DNA of 64,000 nt from an uncultured Bacilli bacterium (lineage in GTDB: Bacteria > Bacillota_I > Bacilli_A > RF39 > UBA660), in assembly GCA_947629235.1 (NCBI GenBank), contig CANRCX010000002.1, positions 20,824 through 84,823 of the forward strand, in the 5' to 3' direction. Position 1 is the stretch's first letter. Every line of letters begins with the position of its first letter. Positions 37,308 through 47,925 of the stretch are shown here, piece after piece. Below the pieces are notes generated by a model. The model was not told the origin of the DNA. It saw nothing but the letters and a program-made list of their open reading frames with translations, and did not search any database. Position numbers and translations under genes: made by a program.

Positions 37308-37382
37308 GCAGGTATAGTTCAACGGTTAGAATGTGGCCTTGCCAAGGCTAAGATGCCGGTTCGATTCCGGTTACTTGCTCCA
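37308..37382 (+). tRNA. tRNA-Gly (GCC)
   Basis: The 75-nt cloverleaf has acceptor GCAGGTA/TACTTGC, anticodon loop TTGCCAA, T arm GCCGG-TTCGATT-CCGGT and an encoded CCA. Confidence 0.9.
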
Positions 37383-37647: not shown

Positions 37648-38676
37648 ATGTTAGAAAAAAGCAATAATAAAATCATTCAAGAAATTAAAGATATTATTTT
37701 GAGCAGCAGAAAAAAGGTGGCTTATGAAGTAAATAATACTATGTTATATGCATATTGGAATGTTGGAAGAATTATTGTTGAAAATGAACAAAATGGTAAT
37801 ATTAAAGCAGAATATGGAAAACAAATTATGAAGGAACTTTCTAAGGAATTAAGAAAAAGTTTAGGATCAGGTTTCTCAGTTAGCAATTTATTTAATATGC
37901 GTAAACTTTATATAACTTATCCAAAATTCCAGACAGTGTCTGGAAAATTAAGCTGGTCTCATTATTGTGAATTATTAAGTATTGAGAACGTTGATGAACG
38001 TAACTTTTATGAAAAGGAATGCTTAAATTCTAATTGGAGTGTACGAGAATTAAAAAGACAATTAGAAACTTCTTTATTTGAAAGATTACTACTTTCTGAA
38101 GGAAAAAATAATAAGAAAAAAGTTTATGAATTATCAAAAGTTGGACAAACACTTAATGCACCGGAAGATGTATTAAAAGAACCTTATGTGTTTGAATTTT
38201 TAGGAGTTAAAGAAAATAAACCAATTTTAGAAAAAGATTTAGAACAAAAGTTAGTAAAACATATTGAAGAATTTTTACTTGAGTTAGGTAAAGGTTTTAT
38301 GTTTGTTGGGACTCAACAAAGAATTACCTTAGGAAATACTCATTATTATGTTGATATGGTGTTTTATAATAAAATATTAAAATGTTATGTTTTAATTGAT
38401 TTAAAAATTGGACAAATGAAAGCTGAATATGCAGGTCAAATGAATATGTATCTAAATTACTATAATGAAGAAATAAATGATAAAGATGATAATAAACCAA
38501 TAGGAATAATTCTTTGTAAAAGTAAAAAAGATATTGCAATTGATTATGCTCTAGGTGGACTTTCCAATAATGTTTTTTCTTCAACTTATACTTACTATAT
38601 TCCTAATAAAGAACAATTAATTAATGAAGTAGAAAAAGTTTTAAATGAAACTGAAAAAGATGATATTGAGCATTAA
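37648..38676 (+). CDS. DUF1016 / YhcG-family PD-(D/E)XK nuclease-domain protein
   Basis: It has the family-typical N-terminal helical region ending in ..FQTVSGKLSWSHY.. and a C-terminal nuclease core (YYVDMVFYN..LKCYVLIDLKIG), i.e. D..(D/E)xK. Confidence 0.78.
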   Translation: MLEKSNNKIIQEIKDIILSSRKKVAYEVNNTMLYAYWNVGRIIVENEQNGNIKAEYGKQIMKELSKELRKSLGSGFSVSNLFNMRKLYITYPKFQTVSGKLSWSHYCELLSIENVDERNFYEKECLNSNWSVRELKRQLETSLFERLLLSEGKNNKKKVYELSKVGQTLNAPEDVLKEPYVFEFLGVKENKPILEKDLEQKLVKHIEEFLLELGKGFMFVGTQQRITLGNTHYYVDMVFYNKILKCYVLIDLKIGQMKAEYAGQMNMYLNYYNEEINDKDDNKPIGIILCKSKKDIAIDYALGGLSNNVFSSTYTYYIPNKEQLINEVEKVLNETEKDDIEH

Positions 38677-39676: not shown

Positions 39677-40702
39677 ATGAAACATACACATACTGAAACA
39701 ACAGAAATTAATTTTTCTAATTTAGAAAAAAGATTACTACAAATAAATGATGAGTTTACATACATTCGTTTTAAAGATTTTATAGAAAAACCAACTTTAA
39801 TTGTTGGTACTGGTGGATCTAAAGCAGTTACATATTACATAAAAATGTATTTAGAATCTAAAGGAGTTTTATGTGAAGTAATTGAACCAAGAGACTATTT
39901 TTATAAAGAAAATATTAAACAATTTGATAGTTTAATTGCTATTTCTAATAGTGGAAAAACAAATGGTATAATGGAAATACTTAAACACTTTAATAATAAT
40001 TATTCAGGTAAATGTTATTTGATTAATAGTGAACTAGATGAAAAGTTAAATACCTTTAATAATATTAATTGGGGTAATAATAAATATAATAATCATGAAA
40101 AAAGTTTTATTTCAATTATTCCGACACTTGCACCTATGTTAATGATTTTAGATTTAAATGTTTTAAATGAATTACAAAAGACAGAATTATCACGTAAAGA
40201 TTTAATCAAAATAAATAATAAAATAAAACAATTAATAGAAAAAAGTAAAGAAACAATTAATAATTTTAACTTCAATTTTAAAGATACAAATTTAATACAA
40301 ATTTTATCAGGATATGATACTATGACTTCATCTTCAATTTTAGAATCTAATATGATAGAAACAGGAACTTCTAGTGTTGTTGTACATGATAAGGGTTCTT
40401 ATTGTCATGGTAGAAGTAATCTTATATTTCAAAATCAAGAAAGTCCTATTATTTATTTAACACATAAAATGAAAGAATTAGATAATGAAATATTATCAAT
40501 ACTTAGACAAGAATATCCTAATATTTTTCTTTTTCATACTTTAGATGAAGATGCAAATATTTTTTGGAAAGAATATTATTTAGCTTTACAAATGTATTTT
40601 TTATCTAAAAAAATAGCTGATGATAAAAAAATTGATCTTACAATGCCTGAATATAATTCAAAAGTAGTACAAAAATTATACAAATATAAAGGTGAAATGT
40701 AA
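39677..40702 (+). CDS. Double SIS (sugar isomerase/phosphosugar-binding)-like protein
   Basis: The first half has LIVGTGGSKAV..AISNSGKTNG (SxSGxT). The second half has a similar Rossmann-like layout with YCHGRSN. Its size of about 340 aa matches AgaS/FrlB/GlmS-isomerase-type double-SIS proteins. Confidence 0.45.
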   Translation: MKHTHTETTEINFSNLEKRLLQINDEFTYIRFKDFIEKPTLIVGTGGSKAVTYYIKMYLESKGVLCEVIEPRDYFYKENIKQFDSLIAISNSGKTNGIMEILKHFNNNYSGKCYLINSELDEKLNTFNNINWGNNKYNNHEKSFISIIPTLAPMLMILDLNVLNELQKTELSRKDLIKINNKIKQLIEKSKETINNFNFNFKDTNLIQILSGYDTMTSSSILESNMIETGTSSVVVHDKGSYCHGRSNLIFQNQESPIIYLTHKMKELDNEILSILRQEYPNIFLFHTLDEDANIFWKEYYLALQMYFLSKKIADDKKIDLTMPEYNSKVVQKLYKYKGEM

Positions 40703-40711
40703 TAATTATTA

Positions 40712-41650
40712 CTAATTAATATTCCATTTTGGTGGATAAATATAATTTATTTTTTCTTTTTTTGGAATATAGTGCTTTTTGATTTTAGTTCTATTAGATT
40801 TTAATTCAGGTATAGCTTGTCTACAATATTTATCTAATTCACAAAATATATTTTGACAATCTATAAGTTGTAGTGGCCTATTACCAATTCTTTTAAAGTT
40901 TAAGTTAAGTCTTTTAAATTCTTCATCTTGATGTTCATACATATATTTAATAATATCTTCATTACTCATTTTACCTTTATCAATAAAACATTTTTTAATT
41001 CCACGAAGTGATCCAGGTCCAGCTATTGTAAATTCATCTTCTTTCCAATTTATGACTTCACTATAATTAATATCAGTTACTAATTGATAAGCCATAAAAT
41101 TTCCAATTAAAGGATAACTTTTAATTATATTAAATGCTTCTTCCATAGTTTTACATTTAATAATTTTATTTTGTATTTTATCTTCATTAAACATTTTATT
41201 AAGAAGTGCTAAATGATTATCATGCTTTCTATCAAATCCAAATGCTTTATTTGCACAACTTATGTATGCATCATTATATATTTTAATACCATTTGATATA
41301 GCTTTCTCTAACACTTTAGAAAAATTTTTAATATCAAATGTTTTTAAAGTAATATCTTCAAAATTATTTAATAACAATTCCCATGTAGATTCTTTATTAA
41401 ATAGTTTAAATAATAATATTCTAAATAACATATCTTCATTAGAATATGTTTTACCATTATATATTACATTTCTTAGTAAATATTGACTAACTCTATCATT
41501 AACTCTATAACTATTACAAAATTTATATTCTTGTAGAATTTTATCATTTGTCCAAGGAGACTTATCTCCATTTAATTTTTTCCAAAATATATTTTGTCTT
41601 TCACATGCAAAATACCAATATAAATCATATACTTCTTGTCTTTTTTTCAT
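40712..41650 (-). CDS. aGPT-Pplase-like / 5-hmdU-DNA-kinase helical-domain family protein (putative DNA base hypermodification protein). Assigned from motif recall only.
   Basis: The N-terminus VYDLYWYFACERQNIFWKK..SPWTNDKILQEYKFCNSYRVNDRVSQYL and the later AGPGSLRGI match my recollection of this family. There is no P-loop. The start codon lies 3 nt after the radical SAM stop, with the GAGGTG RBS spanning that stop. Confidence 0.45.
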   Translation of the reverse strand: MKKRQEVYDLYWYFACERQNIFWKKLNGDKSPWTNDKILQEYKFCNSYRVNDRVSQYLLRNVIYNGKTYSNEDMLFRILLFKLFNKESTWELLLNNFEDITLKTFDIKNFSKVLEKAISNGIKIYNDAYISCANKAFGFDRKHDNHLALLNKMFNEDKIQNKIIKCKTMEEAFNIIKSYPLIGNFMAYQLVTDINYSEVINWKEDEFTIAGPGSLRGIKKCFIDKGKMSNEDIIKYMYEHQDEEFKRLNLNFKRIGNRPLQLIDCQNIFCELDKYCRQAIPELKSNRTKIKKHYIPKKEKINYIYPPKWNIN

Positions 41651-41653
41651 AAA

Positions 41654-42658
41654 TCACCTCATACATTTTGGATCTCTTGAGTTAATACATTTTTTTAAAG
41701 TTAAAACTTTATCTTCATTATCAGTATAATTAGCAATTATTTTTTGACCAATACATCCACTTTTACATATAGAATATTGTTCACAAGAAGAGCAAGTATT
41801 ATTTGTATTAAATTTTCTTATATTACTAAAATATTCTGAATTATATATATCATTTAATGAATTTTCTTTTATATTTCCACTAATACCTAATTTAGTAAAA
41901 TATTTTATTGAATCACAAGGATATGCTATACCATCAAATCCAATTATCATTATTTCATCAGCAATAATACAAGGCGTATTTTTAATTCCTAATATATTCC
42001 AAGGTGTTCCTAATCTTATTTTATCTTTATCATTTGAATTCAAATAAAGATTTTTAATAGCTAATAATTCATCTTTAGATAAATCCATATTAGTTGTACC
42101 TTTTCCATGTGGAACAAATCTTAATAAACTAATTTTATCAAAATAATTTTTATATTTGAAAGTATTAATAGTTTCATTTACTACTTTTTCTAATTTGGAA
42201 AATGAATCTTTTGAAACTGTATAATGAAATCCTAACTTTGCATTATTTCTATCAAAAACCTTATCAAAAAATTGTTCATTGTTATAAATAGAAATATCTT
42301 TTTCATTAGATAATGAATCAGCTAATGAATAAACTATTTTATTAAGACCAAGATTTATTAATTCTCTATATTTATTTAAAGTTTCATCTGTTCTATATGC
42401 AAAAGTATAAATAGTTGATTTCATTTTTAATTTTGAAGTTAATTCTACAAGTTCTGGAAGTTTATCATACATTAAAGGTTCTCCACCAGTAAAAACAATA
42501 GTATCAGCACCCATAATTTTTGCTTCTTTAATAACTCTAGATACATCTTCAAAATCTAATTCTTTTAAATTACTAATATTACTAGTAGCATTACTAGAAC
42601 AATGCTTACAATTTCTAGAACATCTATTTGTTAATTCTATTTTTACTTCTTTTAACAT
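41654..42658 (-). CDS. Radical SAM enzyme with C-terminal SPASM/twitch-like Cys cluster
   Basis: CSRNCKHC (CxxxCxxC), the GGEPL SAM-binding motif and the C-terminal CSSCEQYSICKSGCIG are present. ATG 42658 lies 8 nt after GGAG; the longer ORF starting at 42700 is unlikely. Confidence 0.85.
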   Translation of the reverse strand: MLKEVKIELTNRCSRNCKHCSSNATSNISNLKELDFEDVSRVIKEAKIMGADTIVFTGGEPLMYDKLPELVELTSKLKMKSTIYTFAYRTDETLNKYRELINLGLNKIVYSLADSLSNEKDISIYNNEQFFDKVFDRNNAKLGFHYTVSKDSFSKLEKVVNETINTFKYKNYFDKISLLRFVPHGKGTTNMDLSKDELLAIKNLYLNSNDKDKIRLGTPWNILGIKNTPCIIADEIMIIGFDGIAYPCDSIKYFTKLGISGNIKENSLNDIYNSEYFSNIRKFNTNNTCSSCEQYSICKSGCIGQKIIANYTDNEDKVLTLKKCINSRDPKCMR

Positions 42659-42761
42659 ACTACCAGCTCCATAAAGAATAAATATATAAATATTATACAA
42701 TAAATGTTAATAATTCTCTATCATATAATAAAAAAGTTAAACAAATTTGAAATGTTTAACT

Positions 42762-43443: not shown

Positions 43444-43740
43444 TTATTTATGTTGTTCATTTCCTTTTAATGATTCATAAAATGATCTATTAGCCGCTAC
43501 AACTTGATCAACAGTTTCCCATTCTTGACCATCTGCAGATTTTAAATTCGCAGTTTTAGTATAATTTGTTTGTGTATTAAATTTAGATTCCATTCCATTT
43601 CCATAAGGAGTTCTAGAATCAAAATTAGATTTCATTCCATTTTCGTAAGGTGTTCTAGGATTAATTTTAGGCTCATATATCTTTCCAAATGAATTTAAGT
43701 TATTAATATTTTGGCCATTATTTAAATAATCATTATACAT
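43444..43740 (-). CDS. Hypothetical small Asn/Gln-rich protein with an internal tandem repeat
   Basis: RTPYENGMKSNFDS and RTPYGNGMESKFNT are tandem repeats. ATG 43740 lies 7 nt after AAGGAA. Confidence 0.45.
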   Translation of the reverse strand: MYNDYLNNGQNINNLNSFGKIYEPKINPRTPYENGMKSNFDSRTPYGNGMESKFNTQTNYTKTANLKSADGQEWETVDQVVAANRSFYESLKGNEQHK

Positions 43741-43861
43741 AATATTATTTCCTTTCAAAAATATTATATCATTTTGCTAATAATTTTTATAGTATATTAC
43801 TAAAAACATATAAAATATGCTATACTCATATTAGATAATAAAATAGTTTAGGTGATTTAAA

Positions 43862-45007: not shown

Positions 45008-47356
45008 TTACCAAGAGCTGCCTCCGCCACCACCAGAGCCACCACCTGATGATCCACCGCCAGAAGATCCTCCACCACCAGAGCTGCCACCTGAGCTAGA
45101 TGGACTTGAAGTCATAGCATTTTGAATAGAATACATTGTAGAATGCATAAAATTATTAAATGTTATTATACTAAATGTATCCGTACTATCATACCAATCT
45201 GGTGATTTTATTGCAATAGATTCAAATTTATTAATCCATTCATCTGATACATCTAAGGCATAAGCATAAGGCAATATATTATAAAAGTATTCTGGATCTT
45301 TATGAACTAATGCTTCTAATTTTTCTTTTTCAACTGTTTCTAAAAAATCTTTAAATCCTAATAATTTACCTAACATTTCATTACCAAATTTTGTTCTTTT
45401 TGGTATATATATCAAGCAAATAACTAGTCCACAAATACAACATAAACCAAATATATAAGCAACTAAGTAAACTATATTTTGTGTAAGTATTGGTAATAGA
45501 AAATATATAAATGGAAGAATACCAAACATTATACCCATTAGTATTCCAAATATTTTTGAAAATCCATTTGAAACACTACTGTATAAACCTTTTGTACTTG
45601 GTGTTAAATTTTGAAACAAACAATAAAACATAAATGTAAATCCAATAGCTGGGAATAACGTAAAAATTATCATAGCATATTGTTCAGCATAATCTAATAC
45701 AGGTGGTAATGAAATAAGTAAATAAGATATAATAATCATTATTCTAACAAGATTTAATTTGTTTTCTGCAGATTTTTCAAATATTTTATATTTTTCATTA
45801 AGTTTAATTTGTAATAATATTGAATTTATTGTGTGATAAAAATTATTTTCTAAATCTTTTGATGTAACTTCGTTAAGATTTTCTGTTTCAGTATCATCAA
45901 CTAATGAAAATAATGAAAATTTCTTTCTAAATAATCCTTCTAAGAATTCTTTTTCATATATATTTTTACCATCATAATCTTTTAATTTAGTTATTTTAAA
46001 ATCTTTTGATTTGAAAAATAAACCTTCTTTTTCATATTCAGTAATTTTAATATAACCTTTATTTGCTAAATATATTAAAAGTGATACTACATTTTTATAA
46101 TTTGCTTCACCTTTAAAATAATATGCAATTTCTAAACTATTGAATCCTTCAGGTGGATAAAATTCAACAGTTTTAACTACTAAATCATCACGACCATATT
46201 TATTCCACCAGTATATAGAAATTCCTAAAAATGATAAGGGCAATAGAAATATAATAATGTAAAAATAGTTAAATGCTAATTTTGCATTTTTAAAATATCC
46301 CTCTTCAAGTTCACACCTAACAGTTAATCCTTCACCAGGTTTAAGAATACCATCATAATTACCAGTTATTTTATTACCAACAACATTATATTTTATATTA
46401 CTATTATCAGTTGAACCTTTAAAGCCAGATGAAAATCCTAATTTACTGGAATTAAAAGATTTAGGCATAGTTATTGTAAATGTAACGTTACCAATGTATG
46501 TATCCCATTCAGTACCAATTATATTGTAATAAAGTTCATCATAATTTTTCATAGGATCTTTTCCTAAATTATATGTGTATTTTATTACATAAGTTTTTTT
46601 ACCAGTTAATGTTCTATTTGCATTTCCTATTTTAATTGTATAATCATTACTATTTTTAGATTTAGAAAAAGTATCATCAACACTTACATTTGTTATTTGA
46701 ACTCTATTTTTAGTTATTGTACCATCTAATCTACTAATCTCATTTCTAAGTGGAATAGTTCTAATTATTCCATGCTTAGGAGTATTAAAATATGCAGTAA
46801 TTGTTTCTGTAATATCAAATGTATTATTTTCATTAACTATTATATTTATATCATAATTATCAATTACATAACCATTAGAACTATATAGTCCAATTTCACT
46901 AGGCGTATTTGATGTTGTATCTGTTTTTGAATCATCTACTTCAATTGATAAAGTGTAATAATATATTTCACTAATATCATGTCCATTTAAAATACTTAAA
47001 TTAGACATTAAATTAAAATCACTTGTACCAACAACTGCAGTTTCTTGATTATAACTATTAGCAATTAAATTATAATTATAATCATAATAAGTTACATTTG
47101 ATTTATAATCAATTTCTTCATTTGATTTATTAATAATTGTACCAGTTAAACCAAAAGCTTGAGTAGAAGTAGAAGAATAATCTTTAAAAGATATATCAGA
47201 AAAATATAAATTTTCAATAGTTAATGATTGATTATCTTCTTTAATATCTTTAAATTCTAATTCATTTGATATAGCATAAGAATTTAATGGACAAAATAAA
47301 AATAGAGATAATACAATTATTAAAAATAAAAATAATTTATTAATAATATTTCTCAT
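45008..47356 (-). CDS. DUF2207-domain membrane protein with C-terminal Gly/Ser-rich tail
   Basis: A signal peptide and large extracellular domain are followed by TM clusters, and the protein ends in SSGGSSGGGGSSGGGSSGGGSGGGGGSSW. It sits immediately downstream of LemA, the classic LemA-DUF2207 pair. Confidence 0.7.
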   Translation of the reverse strand: MRNIINKLFLFLIIVLSLFLFCPLNSYAISNELEFKDIKEDNQSLTIENLYFSDISFKDYSSTSTQAFGLTGTIINKSNEEIDYKSNVTYYDYNYNLIANSYNQETAVVGTSDFNLMSNLSILNGHDISEIYYYTLSIEVDDSKTDTTSNTPSEIGLYSSNGYVIDNYDINIIVNENNTFDITETITAYFNTPKHGIIRTIPLRNEISRLDGTITKNRVQITNVSVDDTFSKSKNSNDYTIKIGNANRTLTGKKTYVIKYTYNLGKDPMKNYDELYYNIIGTEWDTYIGNVTFTITMPKSFNSSKLGFSSGFKGSTDNSNIKYNVVGNKITGNYDGILKPGEGLTVRCELEEGYFKNAKLAFNYFYIIIFLLPLSFLGISIYWWNKYGRDDLVVKTVEFYPPEGFNSLEIAYYFKGEANYKNVVSLLIYLANKGYIKITEYEKEGLFFKSKDFKITKLKDYDGKNIYEKEFLEGLFRKKFSLFSLVDDTETENLNEVTSKDLENNFYHTINSILLQIKLNEKYKIFEKSAENKLNLVRIMIIISYLLISLPPVLDYAEQYAMIIFTLFPAIGFTFMFYCLFQNLTPSTKGLYSSVSNGFSKIFGILMGIMFGILPFIYFLLPILTQNIVYLVAYIFGLCCICGLVICLIYIPKRTKFGNEMLGKLLGFKDFLETVEKEKLEALVHKDPEYFYNILPYAYALDVSDEWINKFESIAIKSPDWYDSTDTFSIITFNNFMHSTMYSIQNAMTSSPSSSGGSSGGGGSSGGGSSGGGSGGGGGSSW

Positions 47357-47367
47357 TATTACCTCCA

Positions 47368-47925
47368 TTATAATTTAATATCAATATTTTCTTTTTCGTT
47401 TTCATTAGCTTCAAACATTTCTTTTGTTTTATAGCCAAGTAGTTTAGCTACTATATTACTTGGAAACATTTCAACTTTATTATTATAAATTCTAATTGTT
47501 CCATTATAATATTTTCTTGAATTAGCAATATCTTCTTCAACTTTAGTAAGCTTATTACCTAAATCAATAAAATTTTGATTAGCTTTTAAATCAGGGTAAG
47601 ATTCAGCTAAAGCTATAAGTTTATTGAGATCTTTTGATAATTGCTCATTAGTTTTTAATTTTTCATCGTCAGATAATTTTTCATAAATACTATTTCTTAA
47701 TTCAGTAATTTCTTTTAAAGTATCTTTTTCATGTTTAGCATATTCTTTAACTATTTCAACCATGTTTGGTATTAAATCCCATCTTTTCTTTAAATATACA
47801 TCCATTGTTGAAAAAGCTTCTTTAACTTTATTATTTAATTGTACAAAGCTATTATATATAACTAAAAAAGCTATTAGTAATATAAAAATTAATGCTATAA
47901 TACCATAAAGTATAAAATAACTCAT
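47368..47925 (-). CDS. lemA: LemA family protein
   Basis: An N-terminal TM is followed by ..YNSFV.L...V.EAFS..DV.LKRR.DLIPN.V..VK.YA.HE...L.. Confidence 0.85.
   Translation of the reverse strand: MSYFILYGIIALIFILLIAFLVIYNSFVQLNNKVKEAFSTMDVYLKKRWDLIPNMVEIVKEYAKHEKDTLKEITELRNSIYEKLSDDEKLKTNEQLSKDLNKLIALAESYPDLKANQNFIDLGNKLTKVEEDIANSRKYYNGTIRIYNNKVEMFPSNIVAKLLGYKTKEMFEANENEKENIDIKL

Follow-up and report, generated by a model that had tools for sequence, protein, structure and literature searches.

What does a radical S-adenosylmethionine (rSAM) enzyme do beside a relative of the phage enzymes that hypermodify thymidine, in the chromosome of a gut bacterium that shows no sign of such a phage at this place? 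The question is raised by two adjacent genes on the minus strand of a 64-kb stretch of DNA from an uncultured Bacilli bacterium (contig CANRCX010000002.1; the whole stretch of 64,000 nucleotides is called the window below), an rSAM/SPASM gene at 41654-42658(-) and, directly downstream of it, a gene at 40712-41650(-) for a protein of the HMUDK_hel family. An earlier note, written from the DNA letters alone, had picked out the two as a candidate for an undescribed system. Our analysis leads us to propose, tentatively and with chances that we rate somewhat short of even, a two-gene module of gut Bacilli in which a base-flipping HMUDK_hel protein for pyrimidine C5 is joined by a radical tailoring or activating enzyme.

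The product of the downstream gene, 312 residues long, is a stand-alone HMUDK_hel protein, which matches the Pfam family PF18723 ('5-hmdU DNA kinase, helical domain'; 5-hmdU, 5-hydroxymethyldeoxyuridine) with 357.7 bits against a cut-off of 25 (E 5.9e-107, positions 2-280/281). Neither Pfam nor NCBIfam detects a P-loop or kinase domain in it, in agreement with the missing P-loop remarked on in the earlier note. In an alignment of ten bacterial and phage sequences, R18, F44, N46, R49, D52, G183, F185, D193, G211, G213, G217, C270, E271, K274, Y275 and R277 are invariant. The N-terminal motif and the AGPGSLRGI hairpin (G211-P212-G213...G217, 41000-41020(-)) sit on the family-invariant positions R18, F44, R49, D52, R53, G211, G213 and G217. 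The most conserved stretch of the family, LIDCQN(I/L)FCExDKYxR, is unchanged from gut Bacilli to phage kinases. It contains the candidate active site C270-E271-x-x-K274-Y275-x-R277 (FCELDKYCR, 40820-40843(-)), and the motif C-E-x2-K-Y-x-R is common to the window protein and to cyanobacterial, kinase-fused, MazG-fused and four phage members, including an M6-type enzyme of the 5-hmdU DNA kinases (abbreviated 5-HMUDK).

The AlphaFold2 (AF2) model of this protein is all-helical, with a DNA-glycosylase-like arrangement, and well defined (predicted local distance difference test, pLDDT, 94.3; predicted TM-score, pTM, 0.92). When compared with phage hypermodification enzymes, as the earlier note had advised, the model superimposes in BFVD on the SP10 5-hmdU DNA kinase with E 1.5e-14, a query-based TM-score (TMq) of 0.84 and a root-mean-square deviation of 2.8, and the HMUDK_hel protein of PhiW-14 is likewise returned. 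BFVD also yields two Pplase1 proteins (E 4.5e-9 and 9.9e-5, TMq 0.66-0.69) and three amino-acid:DNA-transferase (AADT/Pplase2) proteins (E 0.014-0.09, probability 0.99-1.0, TMq 0.50-0.54), and a search of PDB sequences with the HMUDK_hel profile produced chance aquaporin matches and nothing else. Because the Pfam aGPT-Pplase families are matched neither by the window protein (E ≤ 0.01) nor by 30 family members (E ≤ 5), we regard it as an HMUDK_hel member that is related to the Pplases at the superfamily level only. The helical family named in the earlier note is thus recovered as PF18723 membership and as a fold matching 5-hmdU kinase and Pplase1, but not as membership of an aGPT-Pplase family of Pfam. 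Helix-hairpin-helix (HhH) motifs typically touch the DNA backbone. The GPG hairpin of the model, placed between the helices 184-195 and 212-221, is a probable contact of this kind, as judged from glycosylase-like fold matches (see below) and from Pplase2 structures (PMC11472151, PMC13458397).

The upstream gene encodes an rSAM/SPASM enzyme of 334 residues that belongs to an orphan family. Its start codon is the ATG at 42658, preceded by a ribosome-binding site (RBS) GGAG at 42670-42667; the TTG start at 42700 in the list of open reading frames (ORFs) is an upstream artefact, because all homologues begin with MLKE. The Pfam families Radical_SAM (PF04055, 64.7 bits, cut-off 29.5, 1.5e-17) and SPASM (PF13186, residues 230-293, 40.4 bits, cut-off 21.5, 3.7e-10) are accompanied by matches to Fer4_12 of Pfam (1.9e-7) and TIGR04085 of NCBIfam (36.1 bits, cut-off 27). 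The earlier note had read this gene as a radical SAM enzyme and had suggested profile searches for both proteins; these place Radical_SAM, SPASM and PF18723 above their cut-offs. The CxxxCxxC cluster motif CSRNCKHC (C13, C17, C20; 42599-42622(-)) is invariant in 13/13 aligned homologues, as is the SAM-binding motif GGEPL. In the SPASM domain (41663-41971(-)) seven cysteines are arranged as C230-x17-C248 (Gx4C), C289-x2-C292-x5-C298-x3-C302 and C332. They are invariant across homologues of 57-87 % identity, except for C292, which is missing in one sequence, and their pattern implies that the enzyme would carry two auxiliary [4Fe-4S] clusters.

No named SPASM or rSAM family fits this enzyme, as the 71 NCBIfam family matches lie far below their cut-offs (best PqqE, 68.8 vs 381 bits); its best PDB sequence match (1.3e-8) covers the rSAM core alone. 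Homologues occur neither in 50,697 phage genomes nor in IMG/VR, and a collection of 5.8 billion proteins holds 439 sequences related to the rSAM protein vs 5676 for its HMUDK_hel partner. The rSAM core begins at residue 6, and Pfam finds neither an N-terminal recognition domain nor a recognition element (RRE) of the kind used for RiPPs (peptides made on ribosomes and modified after translation). The 103-nt intergenic region upstream (42659-42761(-)) contains no same-strand small ORF, and no conserved precursor peptide is found beside the pair, the largest cluster of flanking small ORFs being present at 17/91 loci. Since a recognition domain and a conserved flanking small ORF are both lacking, a classical RiPP role of the rSAM enzyme is unlikely. 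The same intergenic region carries promoter-like TAGAGA-17-TATAAT hexamers at 42720-42692; promoter prediction is uninformative in DNA of 20 % GC (46 sites seen vs 49.9 expected).

The two genes are joined by a coupling junction (41648-41660(-)), in which the TGA stop of the rSAM gene (41656-41654) sits within the GAGGTG RBS of the HMUDK_hel gene (41660-41655) and is followed by TTT (41653-41651) and the ATG (41650-41648), so that 3 nt separate both genes. The earlier note had described this gap and the stop inside the RBS exactly as they are read from the sequence, and its view of the pair as one expression unit is borne out by the operon arrangement. Tight spacing, mostly of 1-12 nt, also characterizes 20 genome loci, and in 73/75 metagenome loci the tblastn offsets between both genes are 6-8 nt. 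Such a translational coupling would keep the output of the rSAM enzyme and of the HMUDK_hel protein at a fixed ratio.

The linkage was followed from both sides, in 80 species-representative genomes with HMUDK_hel orthologues of 55-91 % identity and in 80 metagenome loci with an rSAM homologue of 59-87 % identity at their centre. Seen from the rSAM side, HMUDK_hel follows directly in 75/75 loci with downstream sequence; the other 5/80 are cut by a contig end, and not a single locus is unpaired. Seen from the HMUDK_hel side, the rSAM gene lies directly upstream in 23/80 genomes, a figure that includes the species of the window and one copy truncated where a contig ends, and in the remaining genomes of the 80 none lies within 8 kb. 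This asymmetry indicates that rSAM depends on HMUDK_hel and not the reverse. Flanking genes vary among paired species while the pair itself is kept adjacent, and the pairwise identities of the two proteins correlate (r = 0.91), the rSAM enzyme diverging about 1.45 times faster. HMUDK_hel is more conserved than rSAM in 96 % of genome pairs; set against neighbouring proteins, it is the more conserved one in 81 % of comparisons, though paralogues may enter into some of these. The paired genomes make up a crown group of the HMUDK_hel tree, with a few patches besides, a pattern that fits one acquisition of rSAM followed by repeated loss. At locus L016 (7510-7970), rSAM remnants covering residues 13-177 are found directly upstream of an intact HMUDK_hel gene; they are spread across three reading frames, which marks this rSAM as a pseudogene. 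The rSAM of L010 lacks the first 24 residues, the CxxxCxxC motif included. On this comparative evidence, the rSAM gene appears to be a lineage-specific, later accessory to an older, strongly conserved solo HMUDK_hel gene. The adjacency that the earlier note had wished to see checked in other genomes is thus conserved, but its picture of the pair as one system has to be recast as an old solo gene to which rSAM was added later.

The setting of the pair is chromosomal and non-phage, as the earlier note had claimed: cellular genes of an ordinary kind and two tRNAs surround it, no phage gene stands beside it, and the GC content of about 20 % shows no compositional break at the pair. The closest relatives are found in uncultured gut metagenome-assembled genomes (MAGs) labelled Bacilli, 'Tenericutes', Erysipelotrichaceae, Acholeplasma sp. 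CAG:878 and Coprobacillus sp. CAG:605, whose contigs reach 647 kb; the lineage is probably of the RF39 type. Searching the 64-kb window by tblastn with seeds from related loci revealed no thymidylate-synthase (TS)-like gene (two seeds) and no P-loop kinase, Nmad2, MazG_C, DUF1643, dCTP-deaminase-like, M6-type rSAM or pyridoxal-phosphate (PLP) enzyme gene, while TET/JBP oxygenases were not searched for. The kinase and the hydroxymethylase, which the earlier note had described as absent, are indeed not detected in the window by this search.

The HMUDK_hel family as a whole comprises 4293 clusters at 50 % identity (E ≤ 0.001). Among close relatives of the window protein three architectures are found, solo proteins of about 310-350 residues, fusions of a thymidylate-kinase-like domain with HMUDK_hel, and fusions of HMUDK_hel with MazG and MazG_C. 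Phage members are about 25 % identical to the window protein. In Microbacterium phages a solo HMUDK_hel protein is annotated as 'pyrophosphorylase', and in Brevibacterium phage LuckyBarnes (L085, 1828-5843) genes for a 517-residue TS-like protein, two glycosyltransferases and a solo 284-residue HMUDK_hel protein are consecutive, with no kinase among them. The LuckyBarnes row suggests that the solo domain may also work with non-kinase partners in phages. Eight Nostocales genomes (L075-L082; e.g. L076, 8001-11421) share a conserved array of HMUDK_hel, DUF1643, MazG+MazG_C and dCTP-deaminase-like genes, in which the HMUDK_hel proteins have 390-426 residues and are 55-58 % identical to the window protein, and the dCTP-deaminase-like gene encodes a C-terminal hydrophobic tail; the array is similar to candidate defence systems centred on nucleotides that PMC13092281 mentions. 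At L088 (2716-6508) a ThsB-type TIR gene, Nmad2, a thymidylate-kinase-like + HMUDK_hel fusion and a TS-like gene stand in a row, flanked by SLATT, PLD-nuclease/helicase and SNF2-type helicase genes, i.e. in a defence island. At L090 (5380-7032), within a TIR/SLATT/metallophosphatase island, a solo HMUDK_hel gene (51 % identical) lies divergently 3 nt from a 205-residue AAA_28 P-loop gene, a pair that may represent a split form of the kinase fusion. In five Clostridia MAGs (within L069-L074) HMUDK_hel is embedded in a series of a metallo-beta-lactamase-fold gene, an uncharacterised gene, a YbaK-type tRNA-editing gene, HMUDK_hel itself, a YgjP-like metallohydrolase gene and another uncharacterised gene, with gaps of 0-10 nt around HMUDK_hel; this arrangement may reflect shared ancestry only.

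How might the two proteins cooperate? Pplases are described as HhH-containing, glycosylase-like, base-flipping enzymes (PMC5889632, PMC8989533, PMC11472151, PMC13458397), and Pplase2/PUGT flips its target nucleotide out of double-stranded DNA (PMC11472151). Judged by its homologues 5-HMUDK and Pplase2, the HMUDK_hel protein would attach to nucleic acid (DNA most likely) and flip thymine or a 5-substituted uracil into a pocket lined by Cys270, Glu271, Lys274 and Tyr275. As the rSAM enzyme is made in step with HMUDK_hel and found only with it, it should act on the content of this pocket and would subject the C5 substituent of the flipped base to a radical and probably oxidative reaction. A set of two auxiliary clusters is typical of rSAM enzymes that, once a hydrogen atom has been abstracted, go on to complete a two-electron oxidation or to form a new bond, such as anSME, BtrN and the sactisynthases. 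The rSAM step would then be an accessory tailoring or activation, added to a protein that in most related genomes functions by itself. The comparisons establish the family assignments, the fold, the coupling, the one-way dependence of rSAM on HMUDK_hel, the joint inheritance of both genes and the absence of kinase, hydroxymethylase, phage genes and precursor peptide around the pair. A DNA substrate, base flipping, a physical complex of both proteins and the chemistry itself are all points that we only infer. Since the solo HMUDK_hel protein is retained without rSAM, it must have an activity or a partner of its own, for which glycosylase-like repair, recognition of 5-hydroxymethyluracil (5-hmU) or an unlinked partner are candidates.

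A more specific chemical scenario, which we consider improbable, is an oxygen-independent route by which the pair would functionalise the C5-methyl group of thymine in the DNA of strict anaerobes. HMUDK_hel would flip out thymine, the rSAM enzyme would abstract a methyl hydrogen, and the SPASM auxiliary clusters would take up the second electron, thereby generating an electrophilic exocyclic-methylene intermediate as phages reach it via dUMP hydroxymethylase, 5-HMUDK and Pplase2. Trapping of this intermediate by water or another nucleophile would leave 5-hmU or a hypermodified thymine in the bacterial chromosome.

Several observations weigh against the proposal of a flipped DNA base tailored by the rSAM enzyme. 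The HMUDK_hel gene stands alone in about 55/80 species genomes, among unrelated neighbours including those for isoleucyl-tRNA synthetase (IleRS) and alanine racemase, and its core function consequently needs no rSAM; at L016 the rSAM was lost by decay while HMUDK_hel was kept. No residues separate rSAM-paired from unpaired HMUDK_hel orthologues, apart from one weak position, 156. Close relatives of HMUDK_hel are fused to or located beside enzymes of the nucleotide level, i.e. dTMP-kinase-like, MazG/MazG_C, TS-like and dCTP-deaminase-like proteins, which leaves a free nucleotide as a possible substrate. On the structural side, the AF2 model of the rSAM enzyme is poor (pLDDT 59.6, based on a shallow alignment of 80-87 % identity) and disordered in the SPASM region. 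HhH-GPD glycosylases (Ogg, AlkA, EndoIII, Mag2) make up most of the top 50 PDB Foldseek matches of the HMUDK_hel model, at non-significant E values of 0.6-3, and are used here as a hint, one in keeping with the glycosylase-like character described for the Pplases. The candidate active site has a possible counterpart in PaMx11 PUGT, in which Cys247 is the proposed C6 nucleophile and E243/T244 bind a metal contacting O4 of the flipped thymine (PMC11472151). In an hhalign comparison of HMUDK_hel with a 25-sequence Pplase2 alignment C270 falls on Cys247 and Q266/N267 on E243/T244, with an E value of 0.038 and a probability of 1.4 % (E 0.17 with a single sequence); given these weak statistics, the correspondence of Cys270 and Cys247 is treated as a lead only.

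Five other explanations of the pair have to be weighed. Peptides or proteins are the substrates of most SPASM enzymes that have been characterised, and the rSAM enzyme might accordingly be a maturase that modifies the HMUDK_hel protein by a cross-link, a formylglycine-type oxidation or otherwise, comparable to anSME and sulfatases or to QhpD and QhpC. Its best family matches are indeed PqqE and the sactipeptide and ranthipeptide maturases, its best PDB matches are peptide-modifying rSAM enzymes, and it is coupled to one strictly adjacent partner that possesses invariant cysteines, with no separate precursor peptide. However, HMUDK_hel orthologues without rSAM are indistinguishable in sequence from paired ones and remain strongly constrained after rSAM loss, which means that no modification is required for function, and the HMUDK_hel sequence contains no anSME-type C/S-x-P/A-x-R motif; we therefore consider a maturase unlikely. 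We are similarly doubtful of a pair acting on a free nucleotide or nucleoside, which HMUDK_hel would bind and from which the rSAM enzyme would produce an antimetabolite or an intermediate of salvage, by a reaction like that of viperin or MoaA. The fusions of 45-52 % identical relatives to a dTMP-kinase-like domain or to MazG+MazG_C, the adjoining TS-like, Nmad2, DUF1643 and dCTP-deaminase-like genes, all for nucleotide-level enzymes, and weak rSAM matches to the pVip and MoaA models speak for it. Yet the sole biochemically characterised proteins with an HMUDK_hel domain act on bases in polymeric DNA (PMC8989533), the related Pplase2 binds double-stranded DNA and flips a base (PMC11472151), and the fold neighbours are DNA glycosylases; moreover, the pVip and MoaA matches reflect the generic rSAM core, far below cut-off, and viperins have no seven-cysteine SPASM domain.

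Should the polymeric substrate be RNA, the pair would act as a housekeeping enzyme on tRNA or rRNA, at a uridine modified at C5 (m5U, xm5U-type). RNA is a common target of radical-SAM enzymes, which modify tRNA and rRNA; HMUDK_hel is conserved like ordinary housekeeping genes, IleRS lies directly upstream of the solo gene in two genomes, and the YbaK-type tRNA-editing gene precedes it by 0-10 nt in five Clostridia genomes. This synteny with translation genes is, however, not conserved across the lineage, the HhH motif is of a type that typically contacts the DNA backbone, and all characterised relatives act on DNA (PMC8989533, PMC11472151), so that an RNA substrate appears quite improbable to us. 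An explanation that concerns the role and not the mechanism, and is compatible with our preferred one, is anti-phage defence, in which HMUDK_hel would recognise phage DNA with 5-hmU or hypermodified thymine, or itself mark DNA, with the rSAM enzyme as effector or upgrade. A 52 % identical protein belongs to the Nmad2/kinase-HMUDK_hel/TS cassette within a TIR-SLATT-nuclease island, another relative resides in a TIR/SLATT island, rSAM is patchily distributed and lost among close relatives, and a PDC-S02/YhcG candidate defence gene lies 2 kb away. Against this, PADLOC 2.0 has no model for HMUDK_hel and gives only generic pVip cross-matches of 30-45 bits for rSAM, no nuclease or effector is consistently adjacent to HMUDK_hel, and the solo gene stands among housekeeping genes, vertically conserved in many species (64-90 % identity) and without compositional anomaly; a defence role is for these reasons rather unlikely. 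Finally, rSAM and HMUDK_hel might merely be co-transcribed with no functional link, as could be concluded from HMUDK_hel functioning without rSAM in most genomes and showing no adaptation to it. The 75/75 adjacency from the rSAM side at rSAM identities of 59-87 % and with varying flanks, the conserved stop-in-RBS coupling and the co-divergence of both proteins (r = 0.91) make this very improbable, and among the five rivals chance co-transcription alone is clearly disfavoured.

Further genes of the window deserve a brief description. A YhcG/DUF1016 PD-(D/E)xK nuclease gene at 37648-38676(+), directly after tRNA-Gly (37308-37382), matches the PADLOC candidate defence family PDC-S02 (E 1.9e-134) and accompanies the pair in the same species only (4/80 metagenome loci). 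The gene at 39677-40702(+) and the HMUDK_hel gene are convergent, with 9 nt between their stops; the former encodes a 341-residue protein that matches a SIS domain below threshold, and in a distant genome (L055, 10089-11114) a 50 % identical homologue is encoded about 1.1 kb downstream of a solo HMUDK_hel gene. On the other side of the pair, a 104-residue protein (43444-43758(-)) contains an internal repeat, RTPYENGMKSNFDS / RTPYGNGMESKFNT, has no Pfam match and is found in the window's own species only. This protein, the upstream HD phosphohydrolase and the convergent SIS-like gene were considered as parts of the module and rejected, as they accompany the pair in the same species only. Farther upstream, a LemA gene (47368-47925(-)) overlaps by one base the gene for a 786-residue multi-pass membrane protein (region 45008-47925), which carries a long Gly/Ser tail, SSPSSSGGSSGGGGSSGGGSSGGGSGGGGGSSW, at its end and is without a precomputed Pfam match.

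To our knowledge, thymidine hypermodification has so far been a matter of phages and always proceeds from 5-hmdU, provided at the nucleotide level or by O2-dependent dioxygenases, and then through a kinase. In the gut Bacilli studied here, the predicted DNA-recognition domain of thymidine hypermodification is encoded by a conserved gene in the chromosome of an abundant uncultured lineage, and one sub-lineage appears to have captured for it a dedicated SPASM-type rSAM partner, of a family seen nowhere else in the searches made. If the pair acts on DNA, it would stand for a new type of base-modification or repair chemistry that is cellular and anaerobic. With a nucleotide or the HMUDK_hel protein itself as substrate, the pair would still offer the first context for an orphan rSAM family and for stand-alone HMUDK_hel proteins. 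Natural controls are provided by close relatives that carry the pair, the solo gene alone or a decayed rSAM, and they render the question testable on existing long-read gut metagenomes.

The searchable literature contains no description of an rSAM + HMUDK_hel pair, and a comparison with known systems defines what is shared and what differs. The phage 5-hmdU DNA kinases (M6 gp54, SP10, ViI gp67/gp243) share with the window protein PF18723, the GPG hairpin and the C-E-x2-K-Y-x-R motif, and in M6-type phages the HMUDK gene likewise has a radical-SAM gene directly upstream. In one M6-type Pseudomonas phage, HMUDK_hel forms the C-terminal part of a protein encoded just after the PLP and rSAM genes, a position by which it takes the place of gp54; gp54 of M6 was shown to phosphorylate 5-hmdU in DNA (PMC8989533). 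Unlike these kinases, the window protein has no P-loop kinase domain, recognisable in its fused relatives as Thymidylate_kin, it is not accompanied by a dUMP hydroxymethylase, Pplase2 or PLP enzyme in the 64-kb window, and it is cellular, chromosomal and vertically inherited. With aGPT-Pplase2, exemplified by PaMx11 gp46 PUGT (PF18724), the predicted fold shares the all-helical, HhH-containing base-flipping architecture of two bundles, but it has no Pfam aGPT-Pplase match, and the window holds no 5-HMUDK to supply a phosphorylated substrate.

The rSAM enzyme gp53 of M6 is likewise encoded beside an HMUDK_hel-containing gene. It is an isomerase acting on N-alpha-glycinylthymidine in DNA and so provides a precedent for rSAM chemistry on a thymidine C5 substituent (PMC8989533). 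In contrast to the window enzyme with its seven-cysteine SPASM domain and no phage homologue, gp53 has 480 residues, is spore-photoproduct-lyase-like and lacks SPASM (PMC8989533), and tblastn of the M6-type rSAM against the 64-kb window detected no similarity to the window rSAM. The parallel to the radical SAM isomerase of M6 drawn in the earlier note accordingly remains an analogy and does not extend to kinship of the enzymes. Spore photoproduct lyase itself is an rSAM enzyme whose target in DNA is the carbon that stems from the methyl group of thymine (PMC8989533), but is a single protein without SPASM or detectable similarity to the window rSAM. In anSME, BtrN, PqqE and the sactisynthases the combination of an rSAM core with a C-terminal SPASM domain bearing the cysteines of two clusters is the same as in the window enzyme, which differs from these oxidases and cross-linkers in scoring far below the curated cut-offs, in having neither RRE nor precursor peptide, and in its partner of nucleic-acid type.

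Closest to the window protein among non-orthologous relatives, with 52 % identity, is the HMUDK_hel domain of the Nmad2/dNMP-kinase-5hmdUk/thymidylate-synthase system, whose Nmad2/kinase-HMUDK_hel/TS architecture is reported to be experimentally validated in defence (DefensePredictor, PMC13092281). Unlike that cassette, the window has no kinase fusion, Nmad2 or TS and its setting is not a defence island, while the rSAM enzyme is unique to the module described here. The HMUDK_hel domain is the only component that the module has in common with the phage thymidine-hypermodification pathways and the Nmad2 cassette; it lacks the kinase, the hydroxymethylase and the transferase that are characteristic of them, and to the shared domain it adds an rSAM family seen nowhere else in the searches made.

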